DNA of 63,471 nucleotides, the filler included, from Deltaproteobacteria bacterium (GTDB lineage: Bacteria > JACQOV01): the NCBI GenBank assembly GCA_016202395.1. It is 5 parts of 5 records of this genome, joined end to end, with 100 filler letters (N's around TTAATTAATTAA, not from the genome) between each part and the next. Parts side by side here need not be neighbours in the genome. Positions count along the whole stretch, not along the records: positions 25,931 to 54,987 come from JACQOV010000103.1; 4 more parts are not named here. One strand, 5' to 3'. The notes beneath the pieces are model-generated. The model saw only the letters and a list, made by a program, of their open reading frames with translations, had not been told where the DNA came from and ran no database searches. The position numbers were made by a program, and so were the translations under genes. How positions within the stretch are numbered: the first letter of the stretch is position 1; each line of letters begins with the position of its first letter. Shown here in pieces: positions 8,818-63,138 of this stretch.

Positions 8818-8917
8818 NNNNNNNNNNNNNNNNNNNNNNNNNNNNNNNNNNNNNNNNNNNNTTAATTAATTAANNNNNNNNNNNNNNNNNNNNNNNNNNN
8901 NNNNNNNNNNNNNNNNN
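8818..8917. other. Artificial contig linker
   Basis: N-run flanking the six-frame stop TTAATTAATTAA. Confidence 0.97.
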
Positions 8918-9896: not shown

Positions 9897-10698
9897 ATCG
9901 GAGATTCACCTTTCTGTTTAGCAACACTCTCCAGAAAGAATCGACACGACCCTTTTTGGGATAAGTGGGGGTCAACGCTACCGCAATCGGTCTGTTTTTC
10001 TCAACCCACTTTTTTAAAGGTTGAACCAGTTTCGAATCCGCCTTCAAAGCCTTCAACAGATAACCTAGCCTTTGAATTGAAGAAGGGTTCGGATAAATAC
10101 GAACCATCTGTTTTAGATTCGGCACGGTTAAACAAGGGATCAGATCCCGAATGACAAGACAAACATTATCGAACCCTGCGCTGGCCGATTGAAAATAGAG
10201 CAGATCCAGGGCAGTCCACTCAGGAGAAGAAAACGCGACTTTGCCACTCGAACTGTGGACATCGACAATGCCTCCGGTTGGAAACTCCTTACGCACATGA
10301 AAGTCGAGCCCTAATCTTTCTCCCTTCCGAAACTTCAACTGCTTCGGTAAAATGACCTGGAGACGTTGAGGCTTCTGATGAGTCGCTCCATAGTGATCGG
10401 CTGCAGAAAGAAGACCCACATAATAAGGAGACTGCCGAAAACGCATTAACGCATCGAGAATCGGGAACGGATGAATCCCCCACTTCCGCTCCGAAGGATG
10501 CCAAAGGGCATAAAGCCCTGGGGTGAGACAAAGGACTCTCTTCTGACGTTGAAGGTAACCCAGAATGGCAAGAACGTTTTCTCTTTTGAGTCTGAGACGA
10601 TTTTGGGCTTCTTCCACAGTGAAGGTACATTGACCCTCGGCCTGGAGGCCTTCAATCAGGCAAGCTCCTTTATTTCTATTATTTCTTAAATATTCCAT
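9886..10698 (-). CDS. AbiEi-like antitoxin (type IV TA); start uncertain (10698 or 10743)
   Basis: YYVGLLSAADHYGA.HQ.PQ, SSPEWTALDL, QRLGYLL; overlaps the toxin start. Confidence 0.85.
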   Translation of the reverse strand: MEYLRNNRNKGACLIEGLQAEGQCTFTVEEAQNRLRLKRENVLAILGYLQRQKRVLCLTPGLYALWHPSERKWGIHPFPILDALMRFRQSPYYVGLLSAADHYGATHQKPQRLQVILPKQLKFRKGERLGLDFHVRKEFPTGGIVDVHSSSGKVAFSSPEWTALDLLYFQSASAGFDNVCLVIRDLIPCLTVPNLKQMVRIYPNPSSIQRLGYLLKALKADSKLVQPLKKWVEKNRPIAVALTPTYPKKGRVDSFWRVLLNRKVNLRYDR

Positions 10699-10819
10699 AA
10701 AATAGAATAAATATATATTTTGGAATATTATAGAATCCGCCACAAAAAGTCAAGTTCTATCCTGGCATAAAACAATGATGTTGCTTTTTGAGGCGCTGAG
10801 ATTTATAATGCCTTCCACT

Positions 10820-25396: not shown

Positions 25397-25830
25397 GGAT
25401 GTCCTTTTCGCTCACGCACAAAATTTTGACTGATCAGTGGGAAAAATTCACTGGAATGTTTTTTCTCGCTTCACTCGCAAGATTTTTGACCCGTGGGGAC
25501 AGTTTGGCTTTGCTAACTGTCCCCACAGGGGTCGCTCTAGCAAATACGACCTACCTGGGGACAGGTAGCTTCGCAACCTGTCCCCATGTTCGCCAAGAGG
25601 GGTACCCCAAAAATCTTGCGGCGTTCGCTCAAAAAAACATCCTAGTGAACTTTTCCAACCTCCACCAACGGTTTCTGTTGTTTAGCCTCTCTAAGGGAGG
25701 TAGGTCTCTGAACTCGCTAGCATTTCTCGCCTAGCACCTGCACAGGGGTCGCTCTAGCAAATACGACCCACATGGGGACAGGTAGCTTCGCAACCTGTCC
25801 CCATGTTCGCCAAGAGGGGTACCCCAAAAA
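25397..25830. repeat. Composite palindromic repeat cluster, truncated by the contig end
   Basis: 90-bp direct repeat at 25524-25613 and 25741-25830 (2 mismatches); 25681-25735 recurs inverted at 58891-58945. Confidence 0.85.
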
Positions 25831-25930
25831 NNNNNNNNNNNNNNNNNNNNNNNNNNNNNNNNNNNNNNNNNNNNTTAATTAATTAANNNNNNNNNNNNNN
25901 NNNNNNNNNNNNNNNNNNNNNNNNNNNNNN
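25831..25930. other. Artificial contig linker
   Basis: N-run with TTAATTAATTAA. Confidence 0.97.
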
Positions 25931-31488: not shown

Positions 31489-32763
31489 ATGAGTAACGAA
31501 AACAGCAAATTTTATCCAGGGCTCCTATTCCTAAGTTGGCTAGCGATTTTTACATGGAGCCCTTCCCTAACTTTTGGGGAAGACAATTCCTCGTCGCTGA
31601 ATTTCGGAGGAGAGATCCGACTGCGATTGGAAACACTCGCAGAGTTTGATGCCTTCACTCCCACTCGGAATGACAAGGCCAATGAGACATTCGCTCTCAT
31701 GCGAGTCCGAGCCTATTTGGATGCCAAACCGATTGAAGGGCTTGGGATTTTTCTCCAACCGCAATTCTCGCGGGAATGGGCTCAAGAGCAATCCACGGTT
31801 GCTAACACGAATAATGTCGATGATCTAGATCTCCATCAAGGCTATGTGGATCTAAAGGGGATTGGAAGCCCCTCGCTCTCGCTTCGGTTGGGACGTCAAG
31901 AACTCGCTTACGGAGATGAACGATTGATTGGGACCTTCGGTTGGTCCAATGTGGGGCGATCTTTTGACGCGGCGAAGGCTCGATGGAATTGGGATCATGC
32001 CTGGCTGGATGGTTTTCTAAGTTGGATCCAAAGCGCTCCCGATAACCAATTTTTAAGCGGTCTTTATGGCCATTGGGACAAGGATGAGAAAACAGATTAC
32101 GAGGCCTATCTTCTCTCTCTCAACGACAAAAATAGTGGCGTTGGAGGGGGGGATCTCAATCTTTACACGATCGGTGGACACCTCGAAAGAAAGTTCGGCC
32201 CATGGGATTACGATTCTGAAGTAGCCCTTCAACTGGGGGAGTCAGGGACAAAAGACGTTTTTGCCTATGCAGCCCATCTCGACGGAGGATACACGATCGA
32301 TCGCGAATGGCAGCCTCGTTTGGGGTTAGAGTACAACGTCGCCTCCGGAGATGACTCTCCCAACTCCGGCAATGTGGGAACGTTTAATAATCTTTCTCCT
32401 ACGAACCACGACAAATATGGTTACATGGATCTGGTCGGCTGGCGCAACATCCACAACGGTCGCGCCTCGATTCAACTAAAACCGACCCCTTCTGTAACCA
32501 CCTCGCTCGATTACCACATCTTCTTCCTTATGGAGCCAGCCGACGGCCTCTACCAAGCCAGTGGCGCGCAACTCCGCGCGGGATCGGCTGACGCTTCTCG
32601 CTACACGGGACAAGAGATCGACACCCTCCTCAAATACAAGTGGAACAAGTGGGCCCATTGTTTGTTCGGCTATTCCTTTTTTAAGGCGGGAGATTTTCTA
32701 GAAGACACCGGTGATGCCAAAGACGCTCACTTTCTGTACGCCCAAATCACCGCGAGTTATTGA
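31489..32763 (+). CDS. Alginate-export-family outer-membrane beta-barrel
   Basis: GGEIRLRLE, DLHQGY, RLGRQELAYGDERLIG..GW.N.GRSFD, PTNHDKYGYMD; start uncertain (31438 or 31489). Confidence 0.85.
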   Translation: MSNENSKFYPGLLFLSWLAIFTWSPSLTFGEDNSSSLNFGGEIRLRLETLAEFDAFTPTRNDKANETFALMRVRAYLDAKPIEGLGIFLQPQFSREWAQEQSTVANTNNVDDLDLHQGYVDLKGIGSPSLSLRLGRQELAYGDERLIGTFGWSNVGRSFDAAKARWNWDHAWLDGFLSWIQSAPDNQFLSGLYGHWDKDEKTDYEAYLLSLNDKNSGVGGGDLNLYTIGGHLERKFGPWDYDSEVALQLGESGTKDVFAYAAHLDGGYTIDREWQPRLGLEYNVASGDDSPNSGNVGTFNNLSPTNHDKYGYMDLVGWRNIHNGRASIQLKPTPSVTTSLDYHIFFLMEPADGLYQASGAQLRAGSADASRYTGQEIDTLLKYKWNKWAHCLFGYSFFKAGDFLEDTGDAKDAHFLYAQITASY

Positions 32764-33191
32764 TCCGTTGAAAGGACAGGCAACCCAAAGTCTCGCGCGC
32801 AAAAGGCCTGATCTCGATCCAGTGTAACAAAACCGGCTAATCCTTGGTTTTCATGGAACCATCTCGCGGTTCTTAAATGAACGAGATCGCTCGATTTAGG
32901 AATTCGCACCGGGGGGAAAATCCCCGTCAAGCAGATATCTAAAGACAATTCCTTGAGCAAAAAATGTTCGCCATCCTTCTCCAAACAATCCATAGCTCTC
33001 CTATACTCTTCATCGGAAAGAATCTTTTCACGACTGAAACGGACCAGATTCCGTTCCGCTTCTATCACCAATAATACGCTGGAACATAGAGATTTTTTAT
33101 TAAGAAAATCGTAAAAGGCGTTTCTTCGGGGATCCATGAGCAAAACGGCAAGGTAAGCGGAGGTATCCAAATAAACTAAATCGGTCGTCAC
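32757..33191 (-). CDS. PIN-domain toxin
   Basis: VYLDTSAYL, DLVHLRTA, FVTLD..Q; GTG start overlaps the antitoxin stop. Confidence 0.85.
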   Translation of the reverse strand: MTTDLVYLDTSAYLAVLLMDPRRNAFYDFLNKKSLCSSVLLVIEAERNLVRFSREKILSDEEYRRAMDCLEKDGEHFLLKELSLDICLTGIFPPVRIPKSSDLVHLRTARWFHENQGLAGFVTLDRDQAFCARDFGLPVLSTDQ

Positions 33192-33430
33192 GGGTCCTCT
33201 CGATCCTCTAGAAGATATCGAAGCCAATCTCCCTGGATCGGCTTTTTCAAGGCGGGCTTAAAATGACCGCGTCCCACGAGACGTCCCCGATGAAGTCCAA
33301 CATCACGGCCAGGAACCAAAGCCACATAAGGTCGATTGTATTTTGTAACATGGACGACGTTCCCTTTGGCCGCCTCCTCTGCCCAATGGGAGAGATTCTC
33401 TTTAAGGTCTTTTAAGGGCACACTTGGCAT
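33188..33430 (-). CDS. Phd/YefM family antitoxin
   Basis: LKDLKENLSHW...GNVVHVTKYNRPYVAL. Confidence 0.85.
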   Translation of the reverse strand: MPSVPLKDLKENLSHWAEEAAKGNVVHVTKYNRPYVALVPGRDVGLHRGRLVGRGHFKPALKKPIQGDWLRYLLEDREDP

Positions 33431-33436
33431 GCATAA

Positions 33437-33465
33437 AAAGTACACCTTTATGTCTTATTTGTCAA
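33437..33465 (-). promoter_or_regulatory. Sigma70 promoter of the TA operon
   Basis: TTGACA-N17-TACTTT, ATG 6 nt downstream. Confidence 0.65.
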
Positions 33466-33468
33466 ATG

Positions 33469-33506
33469 CGGGATCGTTCTACTGCAAGCTACTGAGGTTG
33501 GAGTGA
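33469..33506. repeat. 38-bp direct repeat, left (att-like)
   Basis: Identical to 41369-41406. Confidence 0.95.
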
Positions 33507-33569
33507 TGAGGTTTTTTCTTAAAATCGTGAAATCTTAATCAATAAAGCCCACCGACAAACCATTGAGGC

Positions 33570-33585
33570 GTTTTTAGAGGTGCCC
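33570..33585. mobile_element. Solo IS/MITE terminal inverted repeat
   Basis: GTTTTTAGAGGTGCCC is identical to the MITE end at 55252-55267. Confidence 0.65.
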
Positions 33586-33676
33586 CATAGATATACCCCG
33601 CCGTTAAGGCATCAGGAGTTTGTCGAGAAACTCCGAAAAATGACCGATGAAAAACTGCAACCGCCATCAGTGCCTC

Positions 33677-36451
33677 TCACTGCGTCTTCACATACCTGTA
33701 AATCGCATTGATTTCCTCATCCGATAAATTCTGGTCCGGCATCGGTATATGATATTCATTAAAAAGGGCCACGGCCTCTTTGTCTCCTTTCTTCACCATG
33801 GCCTGGGATGATTTGATCCATTGGATGAGCCATTCCTTAGAACGCTTGGAAGTCACACCTTTCAGATCAGGACCCACCAGTTTTCCCTTGCCGATGGTAT
33901 GACAAGCCGTGCAGTTTTTCTGGAAAAGAGCGGCACCGTCGATTGCCGACTCTGTGCCTAAGGTCGGCTTTTTGCTCTCAACTGTTTCTTTGACAAAGGT
34001 TGTTTTGGGCGGCTCTTTAATTTCACCGACAAAAGCAGCAAGGGCTAACACCGCCGTTTGCACGGCCTTGTCATGTTCTTCAGGTGTCAAAGCACGTCCA
34101 TCGGCAACATGGAGACCTTTACGCAGGTTCGTACGGATAGATTCCCAAGTAGGGGTATTGTAGTATTGGTGGCACGCCACACAAGAACCCTCACGTTCCA
34201 CTTTATTCCGCTCCTGCTCGTTCAGAGGACGGTCTGCCAAAAGGGGAAGATTTTGCGTCTGTCGGCCGCTACGGGTTACCAGCTGATCCCAGGCATAGGG
34301 AAAATCCTTAATTCCCGGGATCTGTGGTTTGGCTTTTTTGGACGACAGGATATCGGCATTTATGTCAAAACCCATATTCCCAAAATGCGGTTTATCCCCG
34401 TCAATTATGGAAGAAGAACGGCTCACCCCGACACCGTATCCAATGGCCTTGGGATCCGTATGACAGCTTTCACAGGTACGGGCCACGGCGGTATTGGCAT
34501 GGGGCTGAAGCGGCGCCAGAGTGGGGGCATTATAACCATCGGAGGTCTTGTAGACTTTGTTGACCTCTTTCAGGACGCCATTTTTGTCGACAAAACTCCA
34601 CACGACCTGGCAACCGGGAATGGCCGGGGCCACCTTGCCTTTGTAATTAACGGCAAGAAGCGGATTTTCCCAGCGGATATAACTGACATTCTCGGTATGG
34701 ATATCCCCCGGGGCCGTTGTTTTGACCTGTTTTCCTAAAGCATTGTGTTTTTCGGCAGAAAGCGGCCAGTCAATCCCCTCCTTGCGGGCGTCGTATTTGA
34801 TGTGACAACCGTAGCATTGCGGCGCCCAAGTGGAATGGCAGGCATAACACTCGAGTTTATCCATATGCTGAGAAACCACTTCCATGGCGACATGCCCCTG
34901 TTCCGTTTTCCAGCTACTCTCCAGGGCCTTGTTTTTCAGGAGCGGGATCTCACGCTTCTTCCCATCGGAGACATTGGTTAGATAGGCCTTATTTTCTTCT
35001 TTTGTCCATCGCGTGCGTGCGTTTCCTCTTGTGGTGATGAGATATTCGTTTTCTCCCGACCGATAGGTTCCCCTTTCCGTTTTTGTCTCTACAGGCGTTC
35101 CGAAGCCCACCGGCAGTTCCCAAGGGTATTTCTGGGGCGTTCCATGACAATCCGCACAACCGACTTCCACCTGGTAGAAAGTGACGGGGTAGATATTCCC
35201 GTCTCCGTGCACGTCAATGGATGAGTGACAATCGGCACACTGCATGCCGCGTTCGCCGTGGACGTCTTCGCGAACATGGTTGTATTCTTTTGTATATAAA
35301 GGAACCTGGACCTCCCCGTGATCGTCAAACGGCGGCGTTTTACCGGAACCGACATACTGGTGTTCAACAATCCCGGCAAATGTCGTGCCGATGCGTTTCC
35401 CCCGCGTATGACAATGGTTGCACTGTTGGGCCGGTATTTGCTTTGTAATCTCGTGTTTCATCGGATGGGGTGCAACGTCTTTTGGAATAGTGGGGTCATT
35501 GCTTTCTGAAAAGGCATCATTGGTATAAAGTATGTGACAGGCCGCACAGCCGCCAGCGCGATGATCCCCCCGTTTATCGCGCCCCTCGCCCCAGACGTGG
35601 CAACGGCCGCATTGCTTGCGGTGCATGTCGGCAAAACCGGCTTTGGCGGGGTCGCCCCATAGTTTTGTCCCTTCTTCAAGATTGGGGATTCGTTCCGTAT
35701 GATTCATCACCTCGATGAGCTTCTCTTTTAACGCCTTGGCAATCCATTCCTTGTATTCCGGACTCCCTGCGGAAGGGACGGGACCATCCGGATCATCCAT
35801 GTCAAAATTGGCGTATTTCCATTTCCCTTTCGGAATGACGCCATTGGACATCAGGGTTTTGTTGGCTTTGCCCGTTTCCAGAGCCATGAGGGCGCGTTCC
35901 ATGCGATAGACGTGGTTTCTTCCGGAGGCGCCGCTGGGGTCTGTGGCATAACTGACGACCTCCATCAGACTACCGCCTGCAGGATGTTGCTTTTGGGGCT
36001 TCCCCATCAGGCTTTTAATGGCGTTTTTATCACTATGACATTTGGCGCATCCCTTTCCCTCATTCAAGACCCACATGCTGGAGGGATTAGGGTATATATC
36101 TTTGTGCGCTTCAAGTTTGGTGGTTGCATCGGGGATTCCTTCGTGGCAAACGGCGCATTCAAACCCTGATTTTCCCCCCGCCTGTGACAGCAGAAAAGGC
36201 TGCATTTTTTCATTGATCACCTCAATGCCCTGGTGACAGGAAAGACACCCTTTTTCTTTGGCAAGGGAAGGGCTGACAGTCTCATTTTTTCCGGAGGTTG
36301 TTGGTGATGTTTTGGATTCAGAAGCAACTATGGAAGTCTGTTGCGTTTGGGGTTGGATCGACCTGGTTTTATTTTTTTCATCGGAACAACCGCTCACCGC
36401 GACGATCAAATAACATAAGAAGGCGACAATTTCAGCCAATTTTTTGGTCAT
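33677..36451 (-). CDS. Multiheme cytochrome c lipoprotein (13 CxxCH; the last in a C-terminal class I cytochrome c domain)
   Basis: Lipobox VSGC; CLSCH, CAVCH, CAKCH, CGRCH, CAACH, CNHCH, CADCH x2, CYACH, CYGCH, CESCH, CVACH, then GAALFQKNCTACH...VGPDLKGV...PMP. Confidence 0.93.
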   Translation of the reverse strand: MTKKLAEIVAFLCYLIVAVSGCSDEKNKTRSIQPQTQQTSIVASESKTSPTTSGKNETVSPSLAKEKGCLSCHQGIEVINEKMQPFLLSQAGGKSGFECAVCHEGIPDATTKLEAHKDIYPNPSSMWVLNEGKGCAKCHSDKNAIKSLMGKPQKQHPAGGSLMEVVSYATDPSGASGRNHVYRMERALMALETGKANKTLMSNGVIPKGKWKYANFDMDDPDGPVPSAGSPEYKEWIAKALKEKLIEVMNHTERIPNLEEGTKLWGDPAKAGFADMHRKQCGRCHVWGEGRDKRGDHRAGGCAACHILYTNDAFSESNDPTIPKDVAPHPMKHEITKQIPAQQCNHCHTRGKRIGTTFAGIVEHQYVGSGKTPPFDDHGEVQVPLYTKEYNHVREDVHGERGMQCADCHSSIDVHGDGNIYPVTFYQVEVGCADCHGTPQKYPWELPVGFGTPVETKTERGTYRSGENEYLITTRGNARTRWTKEENKAYLTNVSDGKKREIPLLKNKALESSWKTEQGHVAMEVVSQHMDKLECYACHSTWAPQCYGCHIKYDARKEGIDWPLSAEKHNALGKQVKTTAPGDIHTENVSYIRWENPLLAVNYKGKVAPAIPGCQVVWSFVDKNGVLKEVNKVYKTSDGYNAPTLAPLQPHANTAVARTCESCHTDPKAIGYGVGVSRSSSIIDGDKPHFGNMGFDINADILSSKKAKPQIPGIKDFPYAWDQLVTRSGRQTQNLPLLADRPLNEQERNKVEREGSCVACHQYYNTPTWESIRTNLRKGLHVADGRALTPEEHDKAVQTAVLALAAFVGEIKEPPKTTFVKETVESKKPTLGTESAIDGAALFQKNCTACHTIGKGKLVGPDLKGVTSKRSKEWLIQWIKSSQAMVKKGDKEAVALFNEYHIPMPDQNLSDEEINAIYRYVKTQ

Positions 36452-36463
36452 ACCGCCATTTCC

Positions 36464-37672
36464 TCAAAACTTGACATTTAAATCAACCCGCGACCGTACC
36501 TGTTGATTCCCTCCGGGGGCGCTGTCCAATTCGTCAATTAAACCCCAAGCATGAAGATCGACATTTTTGTAAACGGCCAAGGCAATCCCCAAGAGATGCC
36601 CTTTGAAATTTGTTTGTCGTAAAAAATCATCCTGGGAAAAGGGTGAAAAAACGGCATCCTGCTGGACCCGTTGGTATTGATAATAGGCCCGCCAATCCCA
36701 CTGTTTCTTCAACTGCCCATAAGCGATCCCAAAGGCATAACCATCGTTTCGTGCAGCGTTTGCGCCAAAATTGTGGAGGTATTGGGCTTGAAAGGCAAGG
36801 GGCATGGGGAGACCCGTGTAGGCTGCATCCATGAAAGAGTCTAAAATTCTAAAACCAGAAACAAAACTGTCAGCAGTGCCGTCCCCATCGTTATCCATAG
36901 CTGTATTTCCACCATTGTCGTTGCGGACAATCGCATCGGCACCGGGGGCTCCAGCATTGACGTTGGAATAATAATAAAAACCTGTAGCGGCCGTTAGCTC
37001 CAATTTGCTGGCAAACTGAAATGTGGTTGCCACTTGCGAACCATTCATCCATGCTTCACTCCCTGGATCCTGCTCAAGGAGAATATAACTTCCATTGACA
37101 ACATTTAACTTTTTTACGATTCCAAGATCCCTAAAGGTAAAACCAACGGCACCCCCCTCCGGTTGCACATCCTGGTCCCAGACGAGTTCAGGATAAACGA
37201 CAGGTGTAGCAAAGGGATGACCAAATTTCCCCAACCACAACGTCATTTCTTCAAAAAAAGAGGGAATCCATCTTACGAAAGCCCGATCGAGGGAAAAGTT
37301 TGGTCTATCGAAAGCGCCGGTAAAGGTGGCATGGGGGGAGTTGGGATCGGCAAGGGGCCCCGTGGCAAAACGCGCGCCGACTGTTACGTCGTCATTGACG
37401 GGAAAATCAAGACCCAAACGGAAACGAATTCGCCCACGGGTTCTGGTATCGGTTGTCGCATCGCGATTAAAATCGTTCTCAAGACGCCCGCGAAAGTCGC
37501 CTGAGATGCTAAGTTTACCTTTGATGTCTTCTACCGTTTTTAAAATCGATGAATCCTTTTTTGTTTCACCGTCCGGCTTTTGATCCGATTCTTTTTCTGC
37601 ATGGACGAATCCCGGATGGAGAAAAAAACAGGCCGTAAAAAACAAAATAAACGCGGCTTTGCCAATTTTCAT
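36464..37672 (-). CDS. Putative outer-membrane porin
   Basis: Signal peptide (VHA-E), SGDFRGRLE, RGRIRFRLG, LVWDQDVQPEG, terminal VDLNVKF. Confidence 0.85.
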   Translation of the reverse strand: MKIGKAAFILFFTACFFLHPGFVHAEKESDQKPDGETKKDSSILKTVEDIKGKLSISGDFRGRLENDFNRDATTDTRTRGRIRFRLGLDFPVNDDVTVGARFATGPLADPNSPHATFTGAFDRPNFSLDRAFVRWIPSFFEEMTLWLGKFGHPFATPVVYPELVWDQDVQPEGGAVGFTFRDLGIVKKLNVVNGSYILLEQDPGSEAWMNGSQVATTFQFASKLELTAATGFYYYSNVNAGAPGADAIVRNDNGGNTAMDNDGDGTADSFVSGFRILDSFMDAAYTGLPMPLAFQAQYLHNFGANAARNDGYAFGIAYGQLKKQWDWRAYYQYQRVQQDAVFSPFSQDDFLRQTNFKGHLLGIALAVYKNVDLHAWGLIDELDSAPGGNQQVRSRVDLNVKF

Positions 37673-37704
37673 AAAAATGCCCTCCCAGGCTTATCCCCTT
37701 CATA

Positions 37705-37720
37705 TGCAAACCAGATGCCA
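37705..37720 (-). promoter_or_regulatory. Sigma54 promoter of the porin-cytochrome operon
   Basis: TGGCATCTGGTTTGCA, 32 bp upstream of the porin ATG (GGGAGG RBS). Confidence 0.85.
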
Positions 37721-37860
37721 ATGTTTGGGAAAAACGATGCGGATAGTTTCTTTTATGAAATCATCCAGTTGGAAGTCCATGCGGAAACGGCGGAAGATTC
37801 CTGACGAATCATGGTGGCAGAAAAACTGCCGGCATGGAACGCTGACCGGCAGGACTTCGA

Positions 37861-39240
37861 TCACGTTATCTCTTCGGGGTCGGAGCCGATTCCATACTTT
37901 TTCAGTTTTTCACGGAGGGTAATACGGGCGATTCCAAGAATGCGGGCCGCCTCCGATTTATTGCCGCCCGTTTTTTCGAGCACCGTCAGAATATGTCGTT
38001 TCTCGACTTCTTCGAGAGACAATTCATCCCGCCGGGCGGAGAAGTCCCCGGCAGGATCTTGTGGATTTGCCGCCCGTAAATCGACGGGAAGGTGGGACGG
38101 TAAAATGACGCCGTTCGCGGCCAGAATGCAGGCCCGTTCAATAACATTCCTGAGTTCCCGAATATTTCCAGGCCACGGATAACCCGCAAGAAGTTCTTTC
38201 GCCCCTTCATCGATCCGCAGTTCCCTGCGAAACTGGGCACCAAAATGCCGCAAAAATTTTTCCGTCAACCAGGGGATATCTTCCCTTCGGTCCCTAAGCG
38301 GCGGCACACCTATCTGAAAGACCTTCAGACGATAATAGAGATCTTCACGGAATTGGCCATCCCGAACCAGGGCGGTGAGATCCCTGTTTGTGGAAGCCAT
38401 GATACGGACATTCACATCAATGTCTTTGACTCCGCCAATCCGTTTGAACGTCTGATATTCCAGAACACGCAAAATCTTTGCCTGCAGGGGAAGCGGCATT
38501 TCAGCGATTTCATCCAAAAGAAGAGAGCCGCCATCCGCAAGTTCCAAGAGACCCTTTCTCGTTTCTTTTGAATCGGTAAAGGCCCCCTTCTCAGCGCCAA
38601 AAAATTCCGTTTCCAGGAGATGGGCGGGAATAGCGCTACAGTTAATTTTCAATAAAGGATTTTTTGCGCGATCACTGACGAAATGGATAGCATCTACAAC
38701 CAATTCTTTTCCTGTTCCGCTTTCCCCTGTAATGAGAACCGTTGTTTTTGATACAGTGCCAACGTCTCTGATATTTGACTCCAACTCTTTTGCTTTGGAA
38801 CTGATGCCAAGTCCCTGATCCGGTTGAAAGAAGGGTTGCGTCAAACGCCTCAAGCGTTGAATATCATCCTTCATGTGAGTCGCTTCCAAAGCCCTACCCA
38901 CAATCAATTTGAGTTCGTCGAGTTCAAAGGGTTTAATGATATAATCAAAAGCCCCCAGTTTCATGGCCTTAACGGCTGTTTTGGCGTCGGGGTTCGCTGT
39001 CATCATAATAACGGGTGTGAGATTATCCTGACTCCGGATGTCCTGTAAGACTTCAAGACCGCTACGATCCGGAAGCCTGAGATCCATCAGGACAAGATCA
39101 ACTTTTTTTGTCTGGAATAACCGCAAGCCTTCTCCGGCAGAGGCCCCTGCATAGCTTAAAAATCCACTTTTTTGAAACACTTCCGTCAGTGTCTGCTGCA
39201 TGACCCCATCGTCCTCGATAATAAGAATTTTATGATGCAT
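37861..39240 (-). CDS. NtrC-family sigma54-dependent response regulator
   Basis: Receiver domain, GESGTGKE, GAFTD, WPGNIREL, C-terminal Fis HTH. Confidence 0.95.
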   Translation of the reverse strand: MHHKILIIEDDGVMQQTLTEVFQKSGFLSYAGASAGEGLRLFQTKKVDLVLMDLRLPDRSGLEVLQDIRSQDNLTPVIMMTANPDAKTAVKAMKLGAFDYIIKPFELDELKLIVGRALEATHMKDDIQRLRRLTQPFFQPDQGLGISSKAKELESNIRDVGTVSKTTVLITGESGTGKELVVDAIHFVSDRAKNPLLKINCSAIPAHLLETEFFGAEKGAFTDSKETRKGLLELADGGSLLLDEIAEMPLPLQAKILRVLEYQTFKRIGGVKDIDVNVRIMASTNRDLTALVRDGQFREDLYYRLKVFQIGVPPLRDRREDIPWLTEKFLRHFGAQFRRELRIDEGAKELLAGYPWPGNIRELRNVIERACILAANGVILPSHLPVDLRAANPQDPAGDFSARRDELSLEEVEKRHILTVLEKTGGNKSEAARILGIARITLREKLKKYGIGSDPEEIT

Positions 39241-41206
39241 AATCCCTCACCGGAAAAAGAATTTCAAAGGTGGTTCCATGACCCACCTGGCTTTTCGCAT
39301 GAATGTCCGCCCCATGTTCCTTGACGATCTTGTAAGCAATAGCGAGCCCCAAACCCGATCCATCCGCATGTGTTGTAAAAAATGGTTCAAAAATCCTTGA
39401 GATATTCTCCTGCGGAATTCCCACCCCATTGTCAATGACCGCGACTGAGACCTTCGACGAATCACTATCTTGAACTTCGATTTTTAGCGTTAGTACTCCC
39501 CCATCCGGCATGGCGCGCAAGGCGTTGACAATGAGATTCCAGAGTACTTGTTGTATCTGATGAGAATCTCCGAATATCGGAGGAGTTTCCGCAAATTCCC
39601 TGCGAATAGTCACGCTGTGCCATTCGGCCTCTTTACCAACAAGGAAAATAACCTCTTCGGCAATCTTTACAAGATCACAGGGAGACAATTTCCGGTCTCC
39701 CGGTGTTACAAAGGAATGAAACGTTTTTAGAAAATGGCTTAGCCGATCAATTTCAGAGATAATTCGTCGAAAATAAGTTTGTTGTTCCTGCGGCGTTATG
39801 TTTTCATCCATTGCTTGAATCACTGTTTTAATAGCGGCCAAAGGATTGCCAATTTCATGAGCGATTCCCGCAGAAAGTTGCCCCAGGCTTGCCATTTTTT
39901 CCATCTGATAGACTCGTTCCATGGAAGCGGCAAGTTTCTCCTCGGCACGTCGAATTTCCTCTTGAAGTTGACGATTCCATCCCTTCTCTTTTTCGACAAG
40001 TTCTCGAATATGCTGCGCCATTGTATTCATGGCACGAGCCATGTCCTCTATTTCATCTTTTGTTTCCACATCCAAATAGACATTGAAGTTCCCTTTTCCG
40101 ATTTTTTCCATCTCACGGTGGATGGCAAGCAGGGGTATGGTTAACTGGCGGGCAGCCACCCCTCCCAGGAAAAAAAGCACTAGGGCTATGACAAGACCGA
40201 TCAAAAACAGCACGACAACAAATTCACTCAAAGGCTTCAGAATAATTTTCTTTGGATATTGTAATCCAACAACCCAGTATCGACTTTCTTCTTTCTGATA
40301 TTTGACGGGGGTAAAAATGGTGAAGTGATCTTTATTTTCAATGATTCCTGTTTTACCAGTGAACAATGCATCTTTCGAGGTATTTCCCACGACGTTTTGA
40401 CCCGACAACAGGGATAATGATGTCGTTTTGTCATTTTCTCCCATAGAAATCATGGTGCCATTTATGTTGACGAAAAAGGTTCTGACGCCGGGACGGGTTT
40501 CCAGGCTTCGAATCAGGGCCAGGAGGTCGGTTGCATACAGATTCAGGATCACAAGACCCCTCTTTTGTCCTGCTTCATCAACAAAAGGGGTGGCAAACCG
40601 GACAACAAGCTGGTGAGGTACCTCCACGTGACCGAACTCTTCATTGAGGTCGAGGGAAGAGACATAAATTTCACCGGTGGAAATCTTCATGGCTTCATGG
40701 AGATAATAACGTTCTCCCTTGTTTTGCAATTGTTCCAGAGAGGTGATCATCACATCGCCTCCTTTGGAGTCAACGCGCAACCTTTCCCAACCCTCCATAT
40801 CGAGAAAGCGAATCTGATAGATGCCAATACGATACTTGGCAAAGTTTGAAAAAGCCTCAAGAACGGCCGTGCGCAACTCTATGCGCTCGGATTCTCCATG
40901 GGCGGGCATATGGCGCACATAGTTTTTGAGCGTCGGCAAACGGGAGAGGAAGAGGATATCTCCGCGAACATTCGTGAGCGTTTTTTCGAGCTCTTTACTC
41001 CGGTCCTCGACCTCACGGGTAAGTTCACTCATGTAATTGGACTTCAAAGTTTTCGAAGCAAAGTAAACGCCATAAATGCCCCCAATCGTCAGCGGTAAGA
41101 TCGCACTCAAGAAAAAGGCAATCCGGAGTTTTTTGCGGATGCTTAATGATCCAAAAAACCGATTTAGGTTATACCCGGATTTATTCACATCCTCTTGTCG
41201 ACGCAT
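39230..41206 (-). CDS. Sensor histidine kinase (TM-Cache-TM-HAMP-HisKA-HATPase)
   Basis: Cache-type periplasmic region (QIRFLD..G.ERLRV...YVS.LDLN.E), DEIEDMARAMN, AHEIGNPL, DNGVGI, GSGLGL. Confidence 0.95.
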   Translation of the reverse strand: MRRQEDVNKSGYNLNRFFGSLSIRKKLRIAFFLSAILPLTIGGIYGVYFASKTLKSNYMSELTREVEDRSKELEKTLTNVRGDILFLSRLPTLKNYVRHMPAHGESERIELRTAVLEAFSNFAKYRIGIYQIRFLDMEGWERLRVDSKGGDVMITSLEQLQNKGERYYLHEAMKISTGEIYVSSLDLNEEFGHVEVPHQLVVRFATPFVDEAGQKRGLVILNLYATDLLALIRSLETRPGVRTFFVNINGTMISMGENDKTTSLSLLSGQNVVGNTSKDALFTGKTGIIENKDHFTIFTPVKYQKEESRYWVVGLQYPKKIILKPLSEFVVVLFLIGLVIALVLFFLGGVAARQLTIPLLAIHREMEKIGKGNFNVYLDVETKDEIEDMARAMNTMAQHIRELVEKEKGWNRQLQEEIRRAEEKLAASMERVYQMEKMASLGQLSAGIAHEIGNPLAAIKTVIQAMDENITPQEQQTYFRRIISEIDRLSHFLKTFHSFVTPGDRKLSPCDLVKIAEEVIFLVGKEAEWHSVTIRREFAETPPIFGDSHQIQQVLWNLIVNALRAMPDGGVLTLKIEVQDSDSSKVSVAVIDNGVGIPQENISRIFEPFFTTHADGSGLGLAIAYKIVKEHGADIHAKSQVGHGTTFEILFPVRDYAS

Positions 41207-41280
41207 GGCGAGAGCATAGCAGTGTTTTGGGAAAAGAGGAACGATCTAAATCACATTCCGTGCGCCTCAACCACCTTGTA

Positions 41281-41367
41281 GTCAGTCAACGGGTGATCGC
41301 GATATCCTTTCTCATGAATCCGATTTCTGATCCTCCTGCCCTTGAGCTTCTTATCAACCTCTTCAAT
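41281..41367 (-). pseudogene. IS5-family transposase fragment
   Basis: Manual translation IEEVDKKLKGRRIRNRIHEKGYRDHPLTD resembles the IS5 (R)IHEKGYR.xPLT motif (recalled, not searched). Confidence 0.65.
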
Positions 41368-41368
41368 A

Positions 41369-41406
41369 CGGGATCGTTCTACTGCAAGCTACTGAGGTTG
41401 GAGTGA
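41369..41406. repeat. 38-bp direct repeat, right (att-like)
   Basis: Identical to 33469-33506; encodes HSNLSSLQ-stop of the PRTase. Confidence 0.95.
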
Positions 41407-42044
41407 CGAACCTGATGGAGGAGGGCTAACACCTCTTTATCGGTCACTTGTTTGAAATCTTTGTAACATTGCCCCACGGCTCCAAAATCTTCCGGCATCC
41501 ATAGACAAACCACCTCGGAAACCTCCTTCATATTCCGAATCTTTTCAACCGTGTCTGGGGAACCGGTCGGAACGGCAACGACAATAGAGGCCGGATTCTG
41601 AGCGGAGGCAACCTGAATGGAGGCAATCATGGTGGCTCCTGTTGCCAATCCATCATCGACTAGGATTACGAGGCGATTTTTTGGAGAGATCCTGGGGACT
41701 CCATGACGATACAACTGGATCTCCTCGAAAAGGTCGCCATATCGCCCGGCGACTTCGTCATCGATGTATTCCTCTTTCACTCCAAGCTGCTGAATCAAAG
41801 GCATGTTGAGATAAACGGCCTCTCCTTCCCCAATGGCGCCAATGGCAAGCTCCGGATTCTCAGGGGCTCGCAGTTTTTTAAGAGGCATGACATCCAAGTC
41901 CCATCCCAACTCCTCCCAAACGGGGTGAGCCACTAAGACACCGCCGCGAAGAAGACCCACAGTCAGGGGATTCTCCACTTTGTAAGCCGAGAGAGCTTTC
42001 CCCAATTGGCGCCCTGCTTCGGCGCGATCGGCAAAACTGCGCAT
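41379..42044 (-). CDS. Type I phosphoribosyltransferase family protein
   Basis: FADRAEAGRQL, RGG, ELAIGAI, VILVDDGLATGATM PRPP loop. Confidence 0.92.
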   Translation of the reverse strand: MRSFADRAEAGRQLGKALSAYKVENPLTVGLLRGGVLVAHPVWEELGWDLDVMPLKKLRAPENPELAIGAIGEGEAVYLNMPLIQQLGVKEEYIDDEVAGRYGDLFEEIQLYRHGVPRISPKNRLVILVDDGLATGATMIASIQVASAQNPASIVVAVPTGSPDTVEKIRNMKEVSEVVCLWMPEDFGAVGQCYKDFKQVTDKEVLALLHQVRHSNLSSLQ

Positions 42045-42091: not shown

Positions 42092-43396
42092 TTAAGGCGG
42101 CGAATGGTAAGCGCTGCCGGGCTCGGAGAAATGGGGCAGCTCCTCGATCGGTTTCTCGATAATTTTAGGAGTAATAAAAATGAGAAGCTCACTCTTCTGC
42201 TGTGTCTTGGTATCGCTCTTAAAGAGGTAACCCAAGAGGGGAATCCGCATCAAGCCGGGGATCCCACGCTCCGCTTCGGTCTCTCGAACTCGATACAATC
42301 CCCCAATGATGGTCGTATCCCCATTTTTCAGCATCACCGTCGTTGTGGCGGTGCTATCAATCACGGCAGGGATCCCTTCGACAGCGCGGCTAAAATCGGC
42401 CTCCGATTCGACCGCCTCGATCTCTAATTTAATCAAATCGTTGACCGAGATCTGCGGAGTCACCTGAAGTTCAATCCCGGTTCCGATCTGCTGAAGATTC
42501 GTGGAGCTGTCCCCCGTTTGCCCCACCGTAATAGCAGCGCTGGTCACCACATAGAACTTAACACCACTCCGAATCTTCGCGGAGTGATTGTTTAAAGTCG
42601 CCACCGAGGGACGTGACAGAATTTTGATGTCTCCCTTTTCTTCCGCCGCTGAAAGTTGAAGATCCGCAATAGTGCTGTCCACATTACCAATAATCAAACC
42701 CAACCCCCCCAAGGGAGAACCGGAATTCAACCCCTCCGCGGGCAGATTCACCCCAAGATTTCGCCCCGCATCGGAGGTCCCCACCGCGCTGAGACCGCCC
42801 ACATCGGCATCCCCACCGGAGTGGGTGACCCCCCACTGAATCCCAAAACTGCGAATGAAATCCACCGAGGCATCCACAATCTTGGCCTCAATCAAAACCT
42901 GGCGATCCTCTCGATCGAGGTTCGACACCAACTTTCGAATATTCTCCACCGCCAGCGAGGTGTCACGGACATAAACGGAATTGGTTCTTTCATCCGCAAT
43001 TGTTGTCCCCCTTTCTGTGATGAACGATTGTAGATGAGGGAGAACATCCTTGGCTTTCGCGTACTGAAGGTTGAAGGAGGCGCTCATCAGATCCTCCCCT
43101 AACGCCTCGACCTCTTTTTTGGAAACCACCAGCAACGTCCCTTCCTCCACAACGAACCCAAACCCATGCGTTTTGAGAATGGCGCCCAAGGCCTCCTCCA
43201 GCTTAACCTGTTCAAAGCTTGCCGTCACTTTCCCTTCCACACTCTCTGGCACGACGATATTTTGTCCCCCGAGTTTGGCAAGCATTCGAACGGCAGCGCG
43301 AATATCGGCATCGTGGAACTCCACGCTATAGAGATACTCGGAGGCCAAGGCTCTAGAAACAAAGCAAATAGCTAAAAACCAACTTCTCCACATCAT
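42092..43396 (-). CDS. Secretin (PilQ/MshL-like)
   Basis: QVLIEAKIV, GIELQVTPQI, GIPGLMRIPLLGYLF, ELLIFITPKI. Confidence 0.92.
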   Translation of the reverse strand: MMWRSWFLAICFVSRALASEYLYSVEFHDADIRAAVRMLAKLGGQNIVVPESVEGKVTASFEQVKLEEALGAILKTHGFGFVVEEGTLLVVSKKEVEALGEDLMSASFNLQYAKAKDVLPHLQSFITERGTTIADERTNSVYVRDTSLAVENIRKLVSNLDREDRQVLIEAKIVDASVDFIRSFGIQWGVTHSGGDADVGGLSAVGTSDAGRNLGVNLPAEGLNSGSPLGGLGLIIGNVDSTIADLQLSAAEEKGDIKILSRPSVATLNNHSAKIRSGVKFYVVTSAAITVGQTGDSSTNLQQIGTGIELQVTPQISVNDLIKLEIEAVESEADFSRAVEGIPAVIDSTATTTVMLKNGDTTIIGGLYRVRETEAERGIPGLMRIPLLGYLFKSDTKTQQKSELLIFITPKIIEKPIEELPHFSEPGSAYHSPP

Positions 43397-54987: not shown

Positions 54988-55087
54988 NNNNNNNNNNNNN
55001 NNNNNNNNNNNNNNNNNNNNNNNNNNNNNNNTTAATTAATTAANNNNNNNNNNNNNNNNNNNNNNNNNNNNNNNNNNNNNNNNNNNN
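54988..55087. other. Artificial contig linker
   Basis: N-run with TTAATTAATTAA. Confidence 0.97.
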
Positions 55088-56117: not shown

Positions 56118-56223
56118 CCCCTCACCTCAATCCTCTCCCCAGAGGGGAGAGGAGGAAAAAGACATTGATTCCCCCTTCTTCTTTTTCCTCTCCCCAGAGG
56201 GGAGAGGACCTAAGGTGAGGGGA
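56118..56223. repeat. Inverted pair of CCTCTCCCC/GGGGAGAGG palindromes overlapping the pabB 3' end
   Basis: tcctctccccagaggggagagga occurs twice, framed by cccctcacct/aggtgagggg. Confidence 0.85.
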
Positions 56224-57500
56224 AACCGTAGGATCCATTGCAAAATAGTAGCTTTCAGTAAAGACTCTTCATACTCCTTTTCAGGATCCGAATCGGCAAC
56301 GATCCCACCCCCCGCAGCATAGCAAAGTTTATCCCCAATGCGCCAGGCAGTTCGAATGGCAACGTTGAAATGCAGGCTCCCATCAAAACCCAAATAACCG
56401 ATGGCGCCAGTGTACACCTCCCGAGGCGAGGGTTCCAATTCCTCTAAAATCTGGAGCGCGCGCAACTTAGGGGCTCCAGTTACCGACCCTCCAGGAAAAC
56501 AGGCGCGAAGGATATCGATTCGATCACAATCCTCTCGAACCCTACCACGCACCTGTGACACCAAATGATGAACCGTCCCGTAACTGCGCGCCTCACAAAG
56601 TTTAGGGACCTGCACCGAACCGATTTCGCACACACGACTGAGATCGTTTCGCTCTAGATCGACGATCATGAGATTTTCAGCGCGATCTTTGGTGGAAGTG
56701 AGCAGCTCCTCACAAAGCCGAGCGTCCTCCACAGTTGTCGCGCCTCGCGGTCGCGTCCCTTTAATCGGCCAGGTTTCCAAGACACGTGTTTGAGGATCGT
56801 ACTTTAAAAAACACTCGGGGGAATTCGAGAGAATCTCTAAATCTCCACAGCGTAAATAAGCTCCGTAAGGGACGGGATGATTCTTACACAAACCTAGAAA
56901 AGCTTGGGCTAACGAAGCGGAGCAAGGGATCGTAAATCGTTGAGTCAAATTGGCTTGATAGATGTCGCCGGCAGCAATATAGATTTGAATTTTCTTGATT
57001 CTGTCCATGTATGCATTGCGCGAAAGATTTGAAAAAGATTCAAGATCACTCCCCCGACCTCCCCCTCTTACTTTAGGAGAGAAAAAGGGGAAGTGATCCA
57101 TCTTGTCGTAAAAACCAAAAAAGAGTGTGGGAAGCTCGGTGGGACCCCTTTGGGATTCGATTCCCAATCCTAAGGAAGACCAGAGTTCGTAACCCAAAAA
57201 ACCAACCGCAGCGCCATAACTCTTCCCCTCACCCTCAACCCTCTCCCCTCTGGGGAGAGGGAATGGGTGAGGGGCTTCGGTAGAATAACGATCCAAGAGT
57301 TTTCTTAACTCTAAAAGAGGATCTGCTTCAAAAGTGGTGGTTTTACCTCTCTCCTGAATCGTCACCTGACGTCCATACGCCGTGATCGTGAGGAAGGGGT
57401 CTACTCCCCATAAAATCCCTCCCCAGTGGGGAGGTCTTCCCGTGCCACAGAAGCAAAACCCAATCTCCTTTTCCCTTATCTTCGAGAGGATTTTCCGCAT
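56127..57500 (-). CDS. pabB: Aminodeoxychorismate synthase component I (chorismate-binding family)
   Basis: GDIYQANL, SPECFL, PIKGTRPRG, AENLMIVDL.RND, FPGGSVTGAPK. Confidence 0.88.
   Translation of the reverse strand: MRKILSKIREKEIGFCFCGTGRPPHWGGILWGVDPFLTITAYGRQVTIQERGKTTTFEADPLLELRKLLDRYSTEAPHPFPLPRGERVEGEGKSYGAAVGFLGYELWSSLGLGIESQRGPTELPTLFFGFYDKMDHFPFFSPKVRGGGRGSDLESFSNLSRNAYMDRIKKIQIYIAAGDIYQANLTQRFTIPCSASLAQAFLGLCKNHPVPYGAYLRCGDLEILSNSPECFLKYDPQTRVLETWPIKGTRPRGATTVEDARLCEELLTSTKDRAENLMIVDLERNDLSRVCEIGSVQVPKLCEARSYGTVHHLVSQVRGRVREDCDRIDILRACFPGGSVTGAPKLRALQILEELEPSPREVYTGAIGYLGFDGSLHFNVAIRTAWRIGDKLCYAAGGGIVADSDPEKEYEESLLKATILQWILRFPLTLGPLPSGERKKKKGESMSFSSSPLWGED
57225..57274. repeat. 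Palindromic repeat inserted in-frame in pabB
   Basis: cccctcaccc...ccctctcccc-tct-ggggagaggg...gggtgagggg, translated as PHPFPLPRGERVEGEG. Confidence 0.85.
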
Positions 57501-58618: not shown

Positions 58619-58634
58619 TGGCACAAGATTTGCA
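58619..58634 (+). promoter_or_regulatory. Sigma54 promoter; target gene lost in the gap
   Basis: TGGCACAAGATTTGCA. Confidence 0.85.
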
Positions 58635-58731: not shown

Positions 58732-58831
58732 NNNNNNNNNNNNNNNNNNNNNNNNNNNNNNNNNNNNNNNNNNNNTTAATTAATTAANNNNNNNNNNNNN
58801 NNNNNNNNNNNNNNNNNNNNNNNNNNNNNNN
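58732..58831. other. Artificial contig linker
   Basis: N-run with TTAATTAATTAA. Confidence 0.97.
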
Positions 58832-62211: not shown

Positions 62212-62787
62212 CTATTTTAGGATCGAACGGATCTCGGCGCGGGCTTTTTGGAATTCGTCTTCGGATAAAACTGGCCTGGGTGAGCCAATTTCGATCGAGT
62301 CTTCTAAATCGACCCACGAGCGACAACCTAAATAGCTTTTTCTTTCTTCACAAATTTGAGGTTTTCCCAAAAGAAAAGTCCGGACGAAAAGTATTTTAAT
62401 CGATTCCTTGGGCCGAAAATTTTGATAGCGATCTAAGAGGGACTGCGGCGTATAAATCGTTTTTTCGCTCAACGCTTTGAGCGTTTCGATGTCGGTGGTT
62501 TCTTTAGAATCGACCACTTGAGCGAGGCTTGAGATCCGAATCTTCCCTTCCGCCGGCTGCAAAGCTCTCGCTTGCCCCAAAATCGATTGAAACTGCGGCC
62601 GTATCTGATCCTCCGATTGGTGATAGCGCGTGGGGTAGAGGAGGAACATCGGTGATTCCACGTCGAACCCCGGGTCCATGATTCCTCCTTTGCGGAGCAG
62701 AATCACCTGCTTTCCGGATTCTAGCGCCGCCACCACACTGGCCCATTCTTTGAGCGCTTTTTTAAGATCAGGTTGAGTTTGTATCAT
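62212..62787 (-). CDS. DUF1802 family protein
   Basis: ALKEWA.V..AL..G.Q.ILLRKGGI, FLLYPT..HQ, Y.GCRSWV.L. Confidence 0.9.
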   Translation of the reverse strand: MIQTQPDLKKALKEWASVVAALESGKQVILLRKGGIMDPGFDVESPMFLLYPTRYHQSEDQIRPQFQSILGQARALQPAEGKIRISSLAQVVDSKETTDIETLKALSEKTIYTPQSLLDRYQNFRPKESIKILFVRTFLLGKPQICEERKSYLGCRSWVDLEDSIEIGSPRPVLSEDEFQKARAEIRSILK

Positions 62788-62802
62788 GCTTTGATTCCCT
62801 CC

Positions 62803-63138
62803 TCATGCCGCTCTTCCCATGCCCTTTGCAAGCAGGTAAGAGATGTACTGATTTAGACTAATTCCTTCATCCTTTGCTTTTTCGCTCAAAGCTTTATGGA
62901 GACTCCGAGGGATCCGTGCGAGCACCTTTCCGCTGACTTCTTCTGCAGCAGGAGTCGCTTGCGGGACGGAGCGCCCTTCCTTTCTAGCTACTTCAAGCCA
63001 TAAATCTGAGGCCACATGAATCTCCTTTAGAGCTTCATCTTCCGTTTCTCCAAAAGCGGAACATCCAGGAAGGTCTGGAATGGTTGCAATATACCCTTGA
63101 TCTTCTTTGCTATAGAAAACTTTGATAGGGTAGCGCAT
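62803..63138 (-). CDS. hicB: HicB family antitoxin
   Basis: GYIA.IPDLPGCSAFGET.DEA, SGK...RIP.SLH..L...A..EGISLNQY. Confidence 0.92.
   Translation of the reverse strand: MRYPIKVFYSKEDQGYIATIPDLPGCSAFGETEDEALKEIHVASDLWLEVARKEGRSVPQATPAAEEVSGKVLARIPRSLHKALSEKAKDEGISLNQYISYLLAKGMGRAA

Follow-up and report, generated by a model that had tools for sequence, protein, structure and literature searches.

Introduction

Cis-mobilizable elements (CIMEs) are described, in the part of the published account considered here, as elements that have lost their integration and transfer genes and have kept both attachment sites, attL and attR (PMC5704250). The extHIJKLMNOPQS cluster of Geobacter sulfurreducens provides the closest described counterpart of the cargo treated below: in the portion of the source on which we draw, ExtM is the 12-heme protein GSU2935, and ExtI is a porin of 45 kDa that weakly resembles phosphate porins and whose loss impairs the ability to reduce selenite and tellurite (PMC5877670). 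The function of the ExtI/ExtM part of that cluster is only partly understood. Here we describe a segment of 7.9 kb, bounded by a direct repeat and carrying a sensor kinase, a transcriptional activator, a porin and a multiheme cytochrome, in DNA of an uncultured groundwater member of the Deltaproteobacteria (assembly GCA_016202395.1). The window, that is, the whole stretch of DNA analysed, has 63,471 nucleotides and is made of five contigs joined by four linkers of the form N44-TTAATTAATTAA-N44 (8818-8917, 25831-25930, 54988-55087 and 58732-58831). All positions count along it, and the locus lies entirely within one contig of 29,057 nt (25931-54987). The protein-database entries for the proteins of the window are those of that same contig, and a second assembly of the locus is not represented among them.

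We consider it on balance probable that the segment is a foreign four-gene cassette inserted at the 3′ end of a phosphoribosyltransferase (PRTase) gene, and that the repeat is the footprint of that event. The idea that the insertion was site-specific takes up the greater part of this probability and is, in itself, a tentative proposition.

A direct repeat at the end of a phosphoribosyltransferase gene

The repeat search returned a single two-copy family of 45 nt, with 96% identity (43/45), a start-to-start distance of 7900 bp and a perfect core of 38 nt; it is one of three long direct-repeat families found by scanning the whole window. When up to three mismatches were allowed on both strands, the 38-mer matched the window twice, with an expectation of 0.00 and with none of 100 shuffled sequences giving two or more matches. 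The repeat is real and far beyond chance. Its similarity falls off at both edges, as it does in att sites with a common core.

The two copies differ in their setting. Read on the minus (coding) strand, the right one runs CGT CAC TCC AAC CTC AGT AGC TTG CAG TAG followed by 14 nt, and hence contains the final nine residues of the PRTase, RHSNLSSLQ, and the stop codon at 41381-41379. The left one is placed between the stop of the cytochrome gene (33677) and the gene of a Phd-like antitoxin; an in-frame stop lies a few codons upstream and, beyond the repeat, similarity to the PRTase is nil. As RNA, the repeat shows no stable fold (z-scores 0.48 and 1.24), and a scan of the 31-44 kb region matched no Rfam family.

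The PRTase is full length, with 221 amino acids when counted from the ATG that database relatives use (the longest open reading frame, ORF, extends to 42080), and its tail is homologous to the tails of its relatives. The two closest of these, with 83% and 75% identity, also have 221 amino acids and sit on contigs of 1,511 and 7,483 nt. Their tails, equal in length, read RRSNLSSSQ and RRLDLSRSR and differ from that of the window at 2 and 6 of 10 residues, the C-terminal tail being the fastest-changing part of the protein. Since both nearest relatives keep homologous tails of equal length, the tail within the right copy is, judged from these sequences, native to the lineage. On the same comparison the repeat is young, having arisen much later than the split from these two relatives, since its non-coding copy is still 38/38 identical though the coding tail differs between them. 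Scans of genome and metagenome contigs with the PRTase, as a single protein or as a three-sequence alignment, gave either nothing or 29 loci only, which are uninformative for this site (best-segment identity 31-54%, and 31-47% where most of the query was matched).

When the outer flanks are joined in silico, the PRTase stop is followed by 14 nt, a promoter-like site TTGACA-N17-TACTTT and then the Phd start. The junction so obtained is compact and natural, and its sequence points to an insertion; the antitoxin gene and its paired PIN-like toxin gene are the ones predicted to adjoin the PRTase gene at an empty site.

Gene content of the cassette

Four co-oriented minus-strand genes lie between the repeats, transcribed in the order kinase, activator, porin and cytochrome (Table 1). 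The two inner spacers, scanned in five frames with E-values up to 10, gave no Pfam match (best E 0.11, noise), and domains of integrases, recombinases or transposases were found neither in the four genes and the spacer frames nor in any of the 58 window ORFs scanned. A preliminary description of this DNA had listed a perfect 38-bp repeat with copies 7900 bp apart, the right one holding the last codons and stop of a phosphoribosyltransferase gene and the left one intergenic, and, between them, an integrase-less set of four co-oriented genes (Cache kinase, NtrC-type activator, porin and 13-heme lipoprotein). The repeat search and the mismatch-tolerant pattern search, the sequence of both copies, the ORF calls with their Pfam domains and the domain scans bear out each of these statements in turn. 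Its concern that the 38-mer could be a multicopy repeat finds no support within the window, where the 38-mer is present twice only.

Table 1. Features of the repeat-bounded segment and its surroundings, in order of position along the window
Feature	Position	Strand	Description
PIN-like toxin	32757-33227	-	Weak Pfam match, below gathering score
Phd-like antitoxin	33188-33445	-	Likely ATG 33430; weak Pfam match, below gathering score
Left repeat copy	33465..33509 (core 33469-33506)		Non-coding; stops at the -35-like box (TTGACA) of Phd/PIN
Left inner spacer	33510..33676	-	167 nt, cytochrome stop to repeat; no recognisable gene remnant
Lipoprotein cytochrome c	33677..36451	-	924 aa; 13 CxxCH motifs; lipobox LIVAVSGC; starts 12 nt after porin
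Outer-membrane porin	36464..37672	-	Porin_5 (PF16930), E 1.8e-35; signal peptide
Sigma-54-type promoter	37706..37720	-	TGGCAT-N5-TTGCA; 1 mismatch to consensus; 34 nt upstream of porin ATG
Candidate activator sites	37816..37852	-	Three CTGCC/GGCAG half-sites, two dyads; ~100-130 nt upstream of sigma-54 promoter
NtrC-type sigma-54 activator	37861..39240	-	REC, Sigma54_activat (AAA+), HTH_8; overlaps kinase by 11 nt
Sensor histidine kinase	39230..41206	-	HK_sensor/dCache, HAMP, HisKA, HATPase
Right inner spacer	41207..41364	-	158 nt, repeat to kinase start; no recognisable gene remnant
Right repeat copy	41365..41409 (core 41369-41406)		PRTase last 9 codons, TAG stop, 14 nt downstream
Phosphoribosyltransferase (PF00156), presumed target gene	41379..42044	-	Pfam Pribosyltran E 1.5e-10
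PilQ secretin	42092-43396	-	End of type IV pilus-like cluster reaching ~54.8 kb

Composition of the segment and distribution of its relatives

The tetranucleotide usage of the segment correlates with that of the rest of the window at 0.777. Among 112 sliding intervals of 7.9 kb only one had a lower correlation (0.771), and it overlaps the segment; none had a larger distance. Intervals clear of the segment have values of about 0.90-0.96, and the trough coincides exactly with the repeat-bounded interval. At a resolution of 2 kb the cytochrome gene stands at 0.54-0.67, the porin, activator and kinase genes at 0.70-0.77 and the immediate flanks at 0.82-0.91. GATC and TCGA are over-represented 2.2-fold and 1.9-fold outside the segment and 1.4-fold and 1.1-fold inside it; taking GATC, TCGA and ATCG together, the excess is 1.9-2.2-fold in the host and 1.1-1.4-fold in the segment. 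When synonymous codon bias was pooled over contiguous genes, the segment ranked first among 47 blocks at 0.267, ahead of 0.244 for the highest block that does not overlap it. In the comparison of composition inside and outside the repeats, which the preliminary description had envisaged, the segment thus proves to be the strongest outlier of the window in both tetranucleotide and codon usage.

Relatives of the cargo are few at high identity. The kinase has relatives at 67, 60 and 57%, after which identity drops to 40% or less; the porin has 39 homologues in all, every one of them with PF16930, at 73, 72, 65 and 64% and then at 43% or less. One kinase relative (P0122) and one porin relative (P0244) are encoded, in another assembly, on contigs that both measure 7,444 nt; very probably they share one contig, so that the module would be linked elsewhere too. 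A further close relative (P0243) has a contig of 12,389 nt. The relative of the cytochrome with 68% identity is located on a contig of 35,484 nt, and no porin relative was found on a contig of that size; the pairing of porin and cytochrome is not universal. All the close relatives of the kinase and porin were found in Logan assemblies, where no PRTase exceeded 53% identity, and both close PRTase relatives came from other sources, a faint suggestion that cargo and PRTase have their relatives in different hosts. The composition of the segment and the probably linked relatives are both in keeping with the earlier claim that the four genes were acquired as one unit; the insertion event is the part of that claim that we infer.

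The kinase, the activator and the porin promoter

The kinase has two hydrophobic stretches, residues 27-45 and 320-357, on either side of a predicted periplasmic domain of the dCache type, and its HisKA domain has the H-box, HEIGNP, at residue 450. The activator matches REC (E 6.7e-29), Sigma54_activat (E 4e-61) and HTH_8 (E 2e-16), and its loop, GAFTDS, departs from the GAFTGA motif of the family and retains the F and T. By its sequence it qualifies as an enhancer-binding protein of the NtrC family acting with sigma-54, with a variant loop. The domain order of both proteins is that of the two-component systems AtoS/AtoC and ZraS/ZraR, and the best NCBIfam matches are AtoC for the activator (493.5 bits) and AtoS for the kinase (227.9 bits), both under the equivalog cut-offs of 714 and 646, respectively. 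The cassette pair departs from these systems in the dCache type of its sensor domain and in the GAFTDS loop.

The intergenic region between the activator and porin genes has 188 nt (37673-37860) and contains both the sigma-54-type promoter and the CTGCC/GGCAG dyads, which from their sequence and arrangement are plausible binding sites of the activator. The promoter is one of seven sites in the window with at most one mismatch to the sigma-54 consensus; a relaxed version of the motif is not enriched (63 sites against 44 expected). Two perfect matches to the -24/-12 form TGGCAC-N5-TTGC, at 5582-5596 (-) and 58619-58633 (+), fall outside the cassette, which makes it probable that the host itself runs a sigma-54 regulon. 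The cassette had been called self-regulated, a reading that gains support from the position of the sigma-54 promoter upstream of the porin gene; the regulatory link would run from the activator to this promoter.

The porin and the multiheme cytochrome

The porin exceeds the Porin_5 gathering threshold of 22 bits with a score of 122.9 bits, and it matched no NCBIfam model; in some related Porin_5 clusters, 11-17% of the members also carry Porin_O_P. Its AlphaFold model, obtained with a 36-sequence alignment (pLDDT 86.8, pTM 0.80), consists of a barrel of 16 strands and a short helix at the N terminus. The best match among solved structures is OmpM1, likewise of 16 strands (E 1.6e-16, TM 0.61/0.75), followed by OmpF/C, OmpU, PorB and OprO. 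AlgE, also among the structural matches, is an 18-strand barrel, as is the major outer membrane protein (MOMP) of C. jejuni. As modelled, the protein has the ordinary 16-strand fold of general porins, and not that of an MtrB-type sheath; MtrB has 26 strands. On viral contigs, two Porin_5 relatives with 25-26% identity occur, and none of the ORFs neighbouring them contains a CxxCH motif.

The cytochrome is composed of several parts. Behind the lipobox, residues 23-68 form a tether of about 45 residues, low in complexity and abundant in Ser, Thr and Gln, followed by a core of 12 hemes that is partly ExtM-like and by a C-terminal class I cytochrome c domain at about residues 830-924. Residues 274-682 match positions 141-519 of the 599 positions of the NCBIfam profile for ExtM (NF040943) with 227.7 bits and E 2.3e-67, far below the equivalog cut-off of 800 bits; matches to Atlas clusters named ExtM (score 0.83) offer a lead only. 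Cluster representatives number 5,414 at E-values up to 0.001. The best two, with 68% identity (821 aa) and 59% identity (1,061 aa), align to residues 43-806 only, and both are missing the class I domain with its 13th heme, which occurs in unrelated shorter proteins and is probably a lineage-specific fusion. A likeness to MtrC and MtrF appears at low level: the Pfam match to their domains II/IV is weak and below threshold, and the Atlas model of the cytochrome superposes on clusters of cytochromes of about 790 aa (TM 0.68 by query and 0.79 by target), in which 78-85% of the members carry the MtrC/MtrF domain. With the cytochrome as tblastn query, plasmids yielded 25 records, of which every one was below 60% identity and none covered 80% of the query. 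Prediction of a complex between porin residues 26-402 and cytochrome residues 23-620 gave 0.00 against a mark of 0.32, which is evidence neither way.

The module had been presented as an electron conduit. This was overstated, the porin having a general-porin fold of 16 strands and the cytochrome being only in part ExtM-like.

Neighbouring genes and other features of the window

The left part of the contig (25931-32763) contains a NarH fragment, a possible NarJ, NarI (the gamma subunit of nitrate reductase), a hemerythrin and two transporters of the MFS type, together with an AlgE-like porin on the opposite strand. The genes of this block have an unusually high GC content at third codon positions (GC3, 0.60-0.76) and a low tetranucleotide correlation (0.72-0.75), and it looks like a second, differently composed block beside the cassette.

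Adjacency across the linkers is artificial, and genes that abut them are cut by the contig ends: SecA (7111-8817) is without its N-terminal third, and the NarH fragment that begins at 25931 is C-terminal. A second direct repeat of 90 nt, 98% identical, with copies at 25524-25613 and 25741-25830 and a spacing of 217 nt, holds a GGGGACAGG...CCTGTCCCC hairpin. It sits at the extreme end of its contig, after a PolX gene, and may belong to an intergenic repeat family, dispersed or in tandem, at which the assembly broke. Pairs resembling toxin-antitoxin systems occur on other contigs, namely AbiEii/AbiEi (9066-10743) and HicB beside a DUF1802 protein (62212-63138). The palindromic motif CCTCTCCCC-N4-GGGGAGAGG has three copies, at 56118-56208 and 57226-57261, flanking the gene of a chorismate-binding enzyme; the copies are possibly terminators or a REP-like repeat.

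Insertion model and its alternatives

In the model that we propose, the 7.9-kb segment would have been acquired horizontally and placed between the PRTase gene and the Phd/PIN operon, leaving the 38-45-bp repeat as a pair resembling attL and attR. Because the cassette carries no recombinase, it would have been set in place by an enzyme encoded elsewhere, or it may be what decay has left of a larger integrative element; homologous recombination between the 38-bp identities could in principle delete it again. Once in place, the dCache kinase would sense a periplasmic or extracellular signal and phosphorylate the NtrC-type activator, which would bind the CTGCC/GGCAG dyads and drive transcription of the porin and cytochrome genes from the sigma-54 promoter. 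The resulting porin, an outer-membrane barrel of 16 strands, and the 13-heme cytochrome with its lipid anchor would together constitute an inducible redox module of the periplasm and outer membrane.

Several points weigh against this model. The insertion rests on no observed empty site, circular junction or donor, and neither an integrase nor a remnant of one was found, which leaves a site-specific mechanism with no supporting enzyme. The repeat lacks obvious dyad symmetry, and the window contains no third, degenerate copy of it, the next-best ungapped match to the 45-mer being 25/45 (mean 11.2, sd 3.0). As to composition, the codon bias of the kinase gene alone is ordinary (0.259), other blocks reach 0.24, and the type of protein, here a cytochrome and a porin, can by itself skew composition. 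In the left half of the contig (25.9-32.8 kb), too, composition is atypical, GC3 reaching 0.76; the region from the PRTase gene to the contig end may therefore be a mosaic, and the cassette is not the only part to stand out. The reference for host composition is about 55 kb of one binned assembly, and the contigs of the relatives are short, so that the absence of the PRTase from the same source carries little weight.

An insertion without a site-specific recombinase, whether illegitimate, microhomology-mediated or by template switching, from a source elsewhere in the genome or from transformed DNA, would turn the 45-bp duplication into a by-product of repair and the segment into something other than a mobile unit. 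The lack of both recombinase and remnant suits such an origin, as does a repeat devoid of dyad symmetry and structure; the 38-mer was not found in 2.9 million viral and proviral contigs, and a cluster resembling a type IV pilus or DNA-uptake system adjoins the locus. A fresh duplication, however, would be identical throughout, and the decay at the edges of the repeat fits two att partners better. Moreover, a duplication of 38-45 bp exactly at the 3′ end of a gene is a typical trace of site-specific integration. We regard this origin as unlikely.

It is more improbable still that the locus is old and vertically inherited, for example as a pilus-associated two-component system with its regulon, the repeat being kept by selection or conversion. 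Under such descent the identity of a non-coding 38/38 copy would have had to persist while the coding tail came to differ in the nearest relatives, and the repeat, which matches no RNA family and has no stable fold, bounds the composition outlier of the window. Pairs of a kinase and an NtrC-type regulator are common beside type IV pilus clusters (PilS/PilR), which would suit an ancient association; the kinase of the cassette, with its periplasmic Cache domain, is nevertheless unlike PilS in its architecture. Two further observations would suit vertical inheritance, namely that the relatives of kinase, porin and cytochrome, at 57-73%, are not far below those of the PRTase at 75-83%, and that the left copy abuts the Phd promoter.

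Public sequencing runs bear on the integrity of the assembly. Four runs contain the stretch, with shares of 0.98, 0.98, 0.76 and 0.44; they belong to one groundwater-metagenome study, and two of them are possible source runs. Their contigs, which we take to have been built at k=31, break at the repeat with overlaps of 30 nt that fit this word length (at 33498/33469 in run X1 and at 41406/41377 in run X2). One contig of run X4 (33408-33870) spans the whole left copy in the arrangement of the window, within the limit that k=31 cannot phase the two sides, and among the contigs listed none crosses the right copy. No skip or back-joint of 7.9 kb occurs among the contigs of the four runs, which is uninformative, because at k=31 every word is common to the integrated form and to the combination of an empty site and a circle. 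Contig depths over flank, cassette and flank are 4.6-5.8, 6.5-7.3 and 5.4-6.3 in X1, and 10.6, 9.1-12.4 and 9.9 in X2; depths are similar in all four runs, a slight hint that cassette and flanks belong to one genome at one copy. In X3 and X4, contigs connect 42424, inside pilQ, with 37872, at the activator gene's end, through 38 intervening letters of different sequence, a joint that may come from conserved domains of another organism or from a structural variant.

That the assembler threaded in a separate molecule sharing the 38-mer (a circle, a small replicon or a piece of another organism) is hardly probable: the window does consist of joined contigs from a metagenome assembly, all contigs listed for the two likely source runs break at the repeat, no listed contig carries the right copy through and the distinct composition would also suit another organism, but a repeat of 38 bp is shorter than ordinary reads, so that spanning reads should anchor a multi-k assembly, the X4 contig crosses the left copy with the reservation just given, and, as a weak argument, cassette and flank depths match in four samples that differ about two-fold in abundance.

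Returning to the preferred explanation, if the cassette was inserted as we propose, the locus would be a small and clean example of respiratory or redox capacity moving with its own sensor and switch among uncultured subsurface bacteria, and it would illustrate that cargo can persist with att-like ends after the recombinase is lost.

Comparison with known systems

Measured against integrative elements in general, such as genomic islands, integrative and mobilizable elements (IMEs) or integrative and conjugative elements (ICEs), the segment has flanking repeats, an intact target gene and a composition unlike that of its host, and it fails to encode an integrase of its own. It shares with CIMEs a cargo-only content, with genes for neither integration nor transfer, and ends that would correspond to att sites. 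CIMEs were defined for streptococcal ICE and IME families, with cognate integrases known and mobilisation shown, whereas the present segment is known from sequence alone; it also differs in its target, a PRTase gene of the PF00156 family, and in its host, an uncultured groundwater bacterium. The preliminary description had ranked the locus as an undescribed system, which goes too far, as integrase-less islands that keep their att repeats already bear a name in the portion of the literature considered here (PMC5704250). The segment is best filed as a CIME-like integrase-less islet, a kind already known.

A bolder reading would make it a cargo-only mobile cassette with an att-like target in the PRTase tail, moved by a recombinase acting in trans and carrying a redox module with its own sigma-54 switch from one groundwater bacterium to another, perhaps with the cytochrome tether threaded through the porin, in the manner in which RcsF threads through OmpA/C/F. 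Its products would then form a two-protein outer-membrane unit of electron transfer unlike MtrCAB or Pcc. We hold this to be very unlikely.

With MtrCAB and Pcc (OmaB/OmbB/OmcB) the cassette has in common that the gene of a beta-barrel adjoins that of a multiheme lipoprotein, the 13 CxxCH motifs and the lipobox marking the latter as a predicted multiheme outer-membrane lipoprotein. Unlike those systems, it has a barrel of 16 strands in place of a large sheath of 20-26 strands, and no periplasmic cytochrome of the MtrA/OmaB type, since one cytochrome gene only lies between the repeats. A literature search confined to the pairing of Porin_5/PF16930 with multiheme cytochromes found no link between them.

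By analogy, the pair most resembles the part of the ext cluster formed by the ExtI porin and the ExtM cytochrome. In both, a porin of about 45 kDa is encoded beside a c-type cytochrome of about 12 hemes, as far as the part of the source considered here describes the Geobacter genes (PMC5877670); the porin is likened to ExtI by its description. The cassette is without ExtH, J, KL, N, O, P, Q and S, and its cytochrome adds to the ext pair a lipid anchor indicated by the lipobox, the tether of about 45 residues and the class I heme domain. Integrase-less islets, operons under two-component control and clusters of porin and cytochrome are all known, and no new category is called for. The cargo combines ordinary parts in a new way, and its Porin_5 porin and ExtM-like cytochrome, under putative sigma-54 control, offer, next to the ExtI/ExtM pair of Geobacter, a testable candidate for an inducible redox module.

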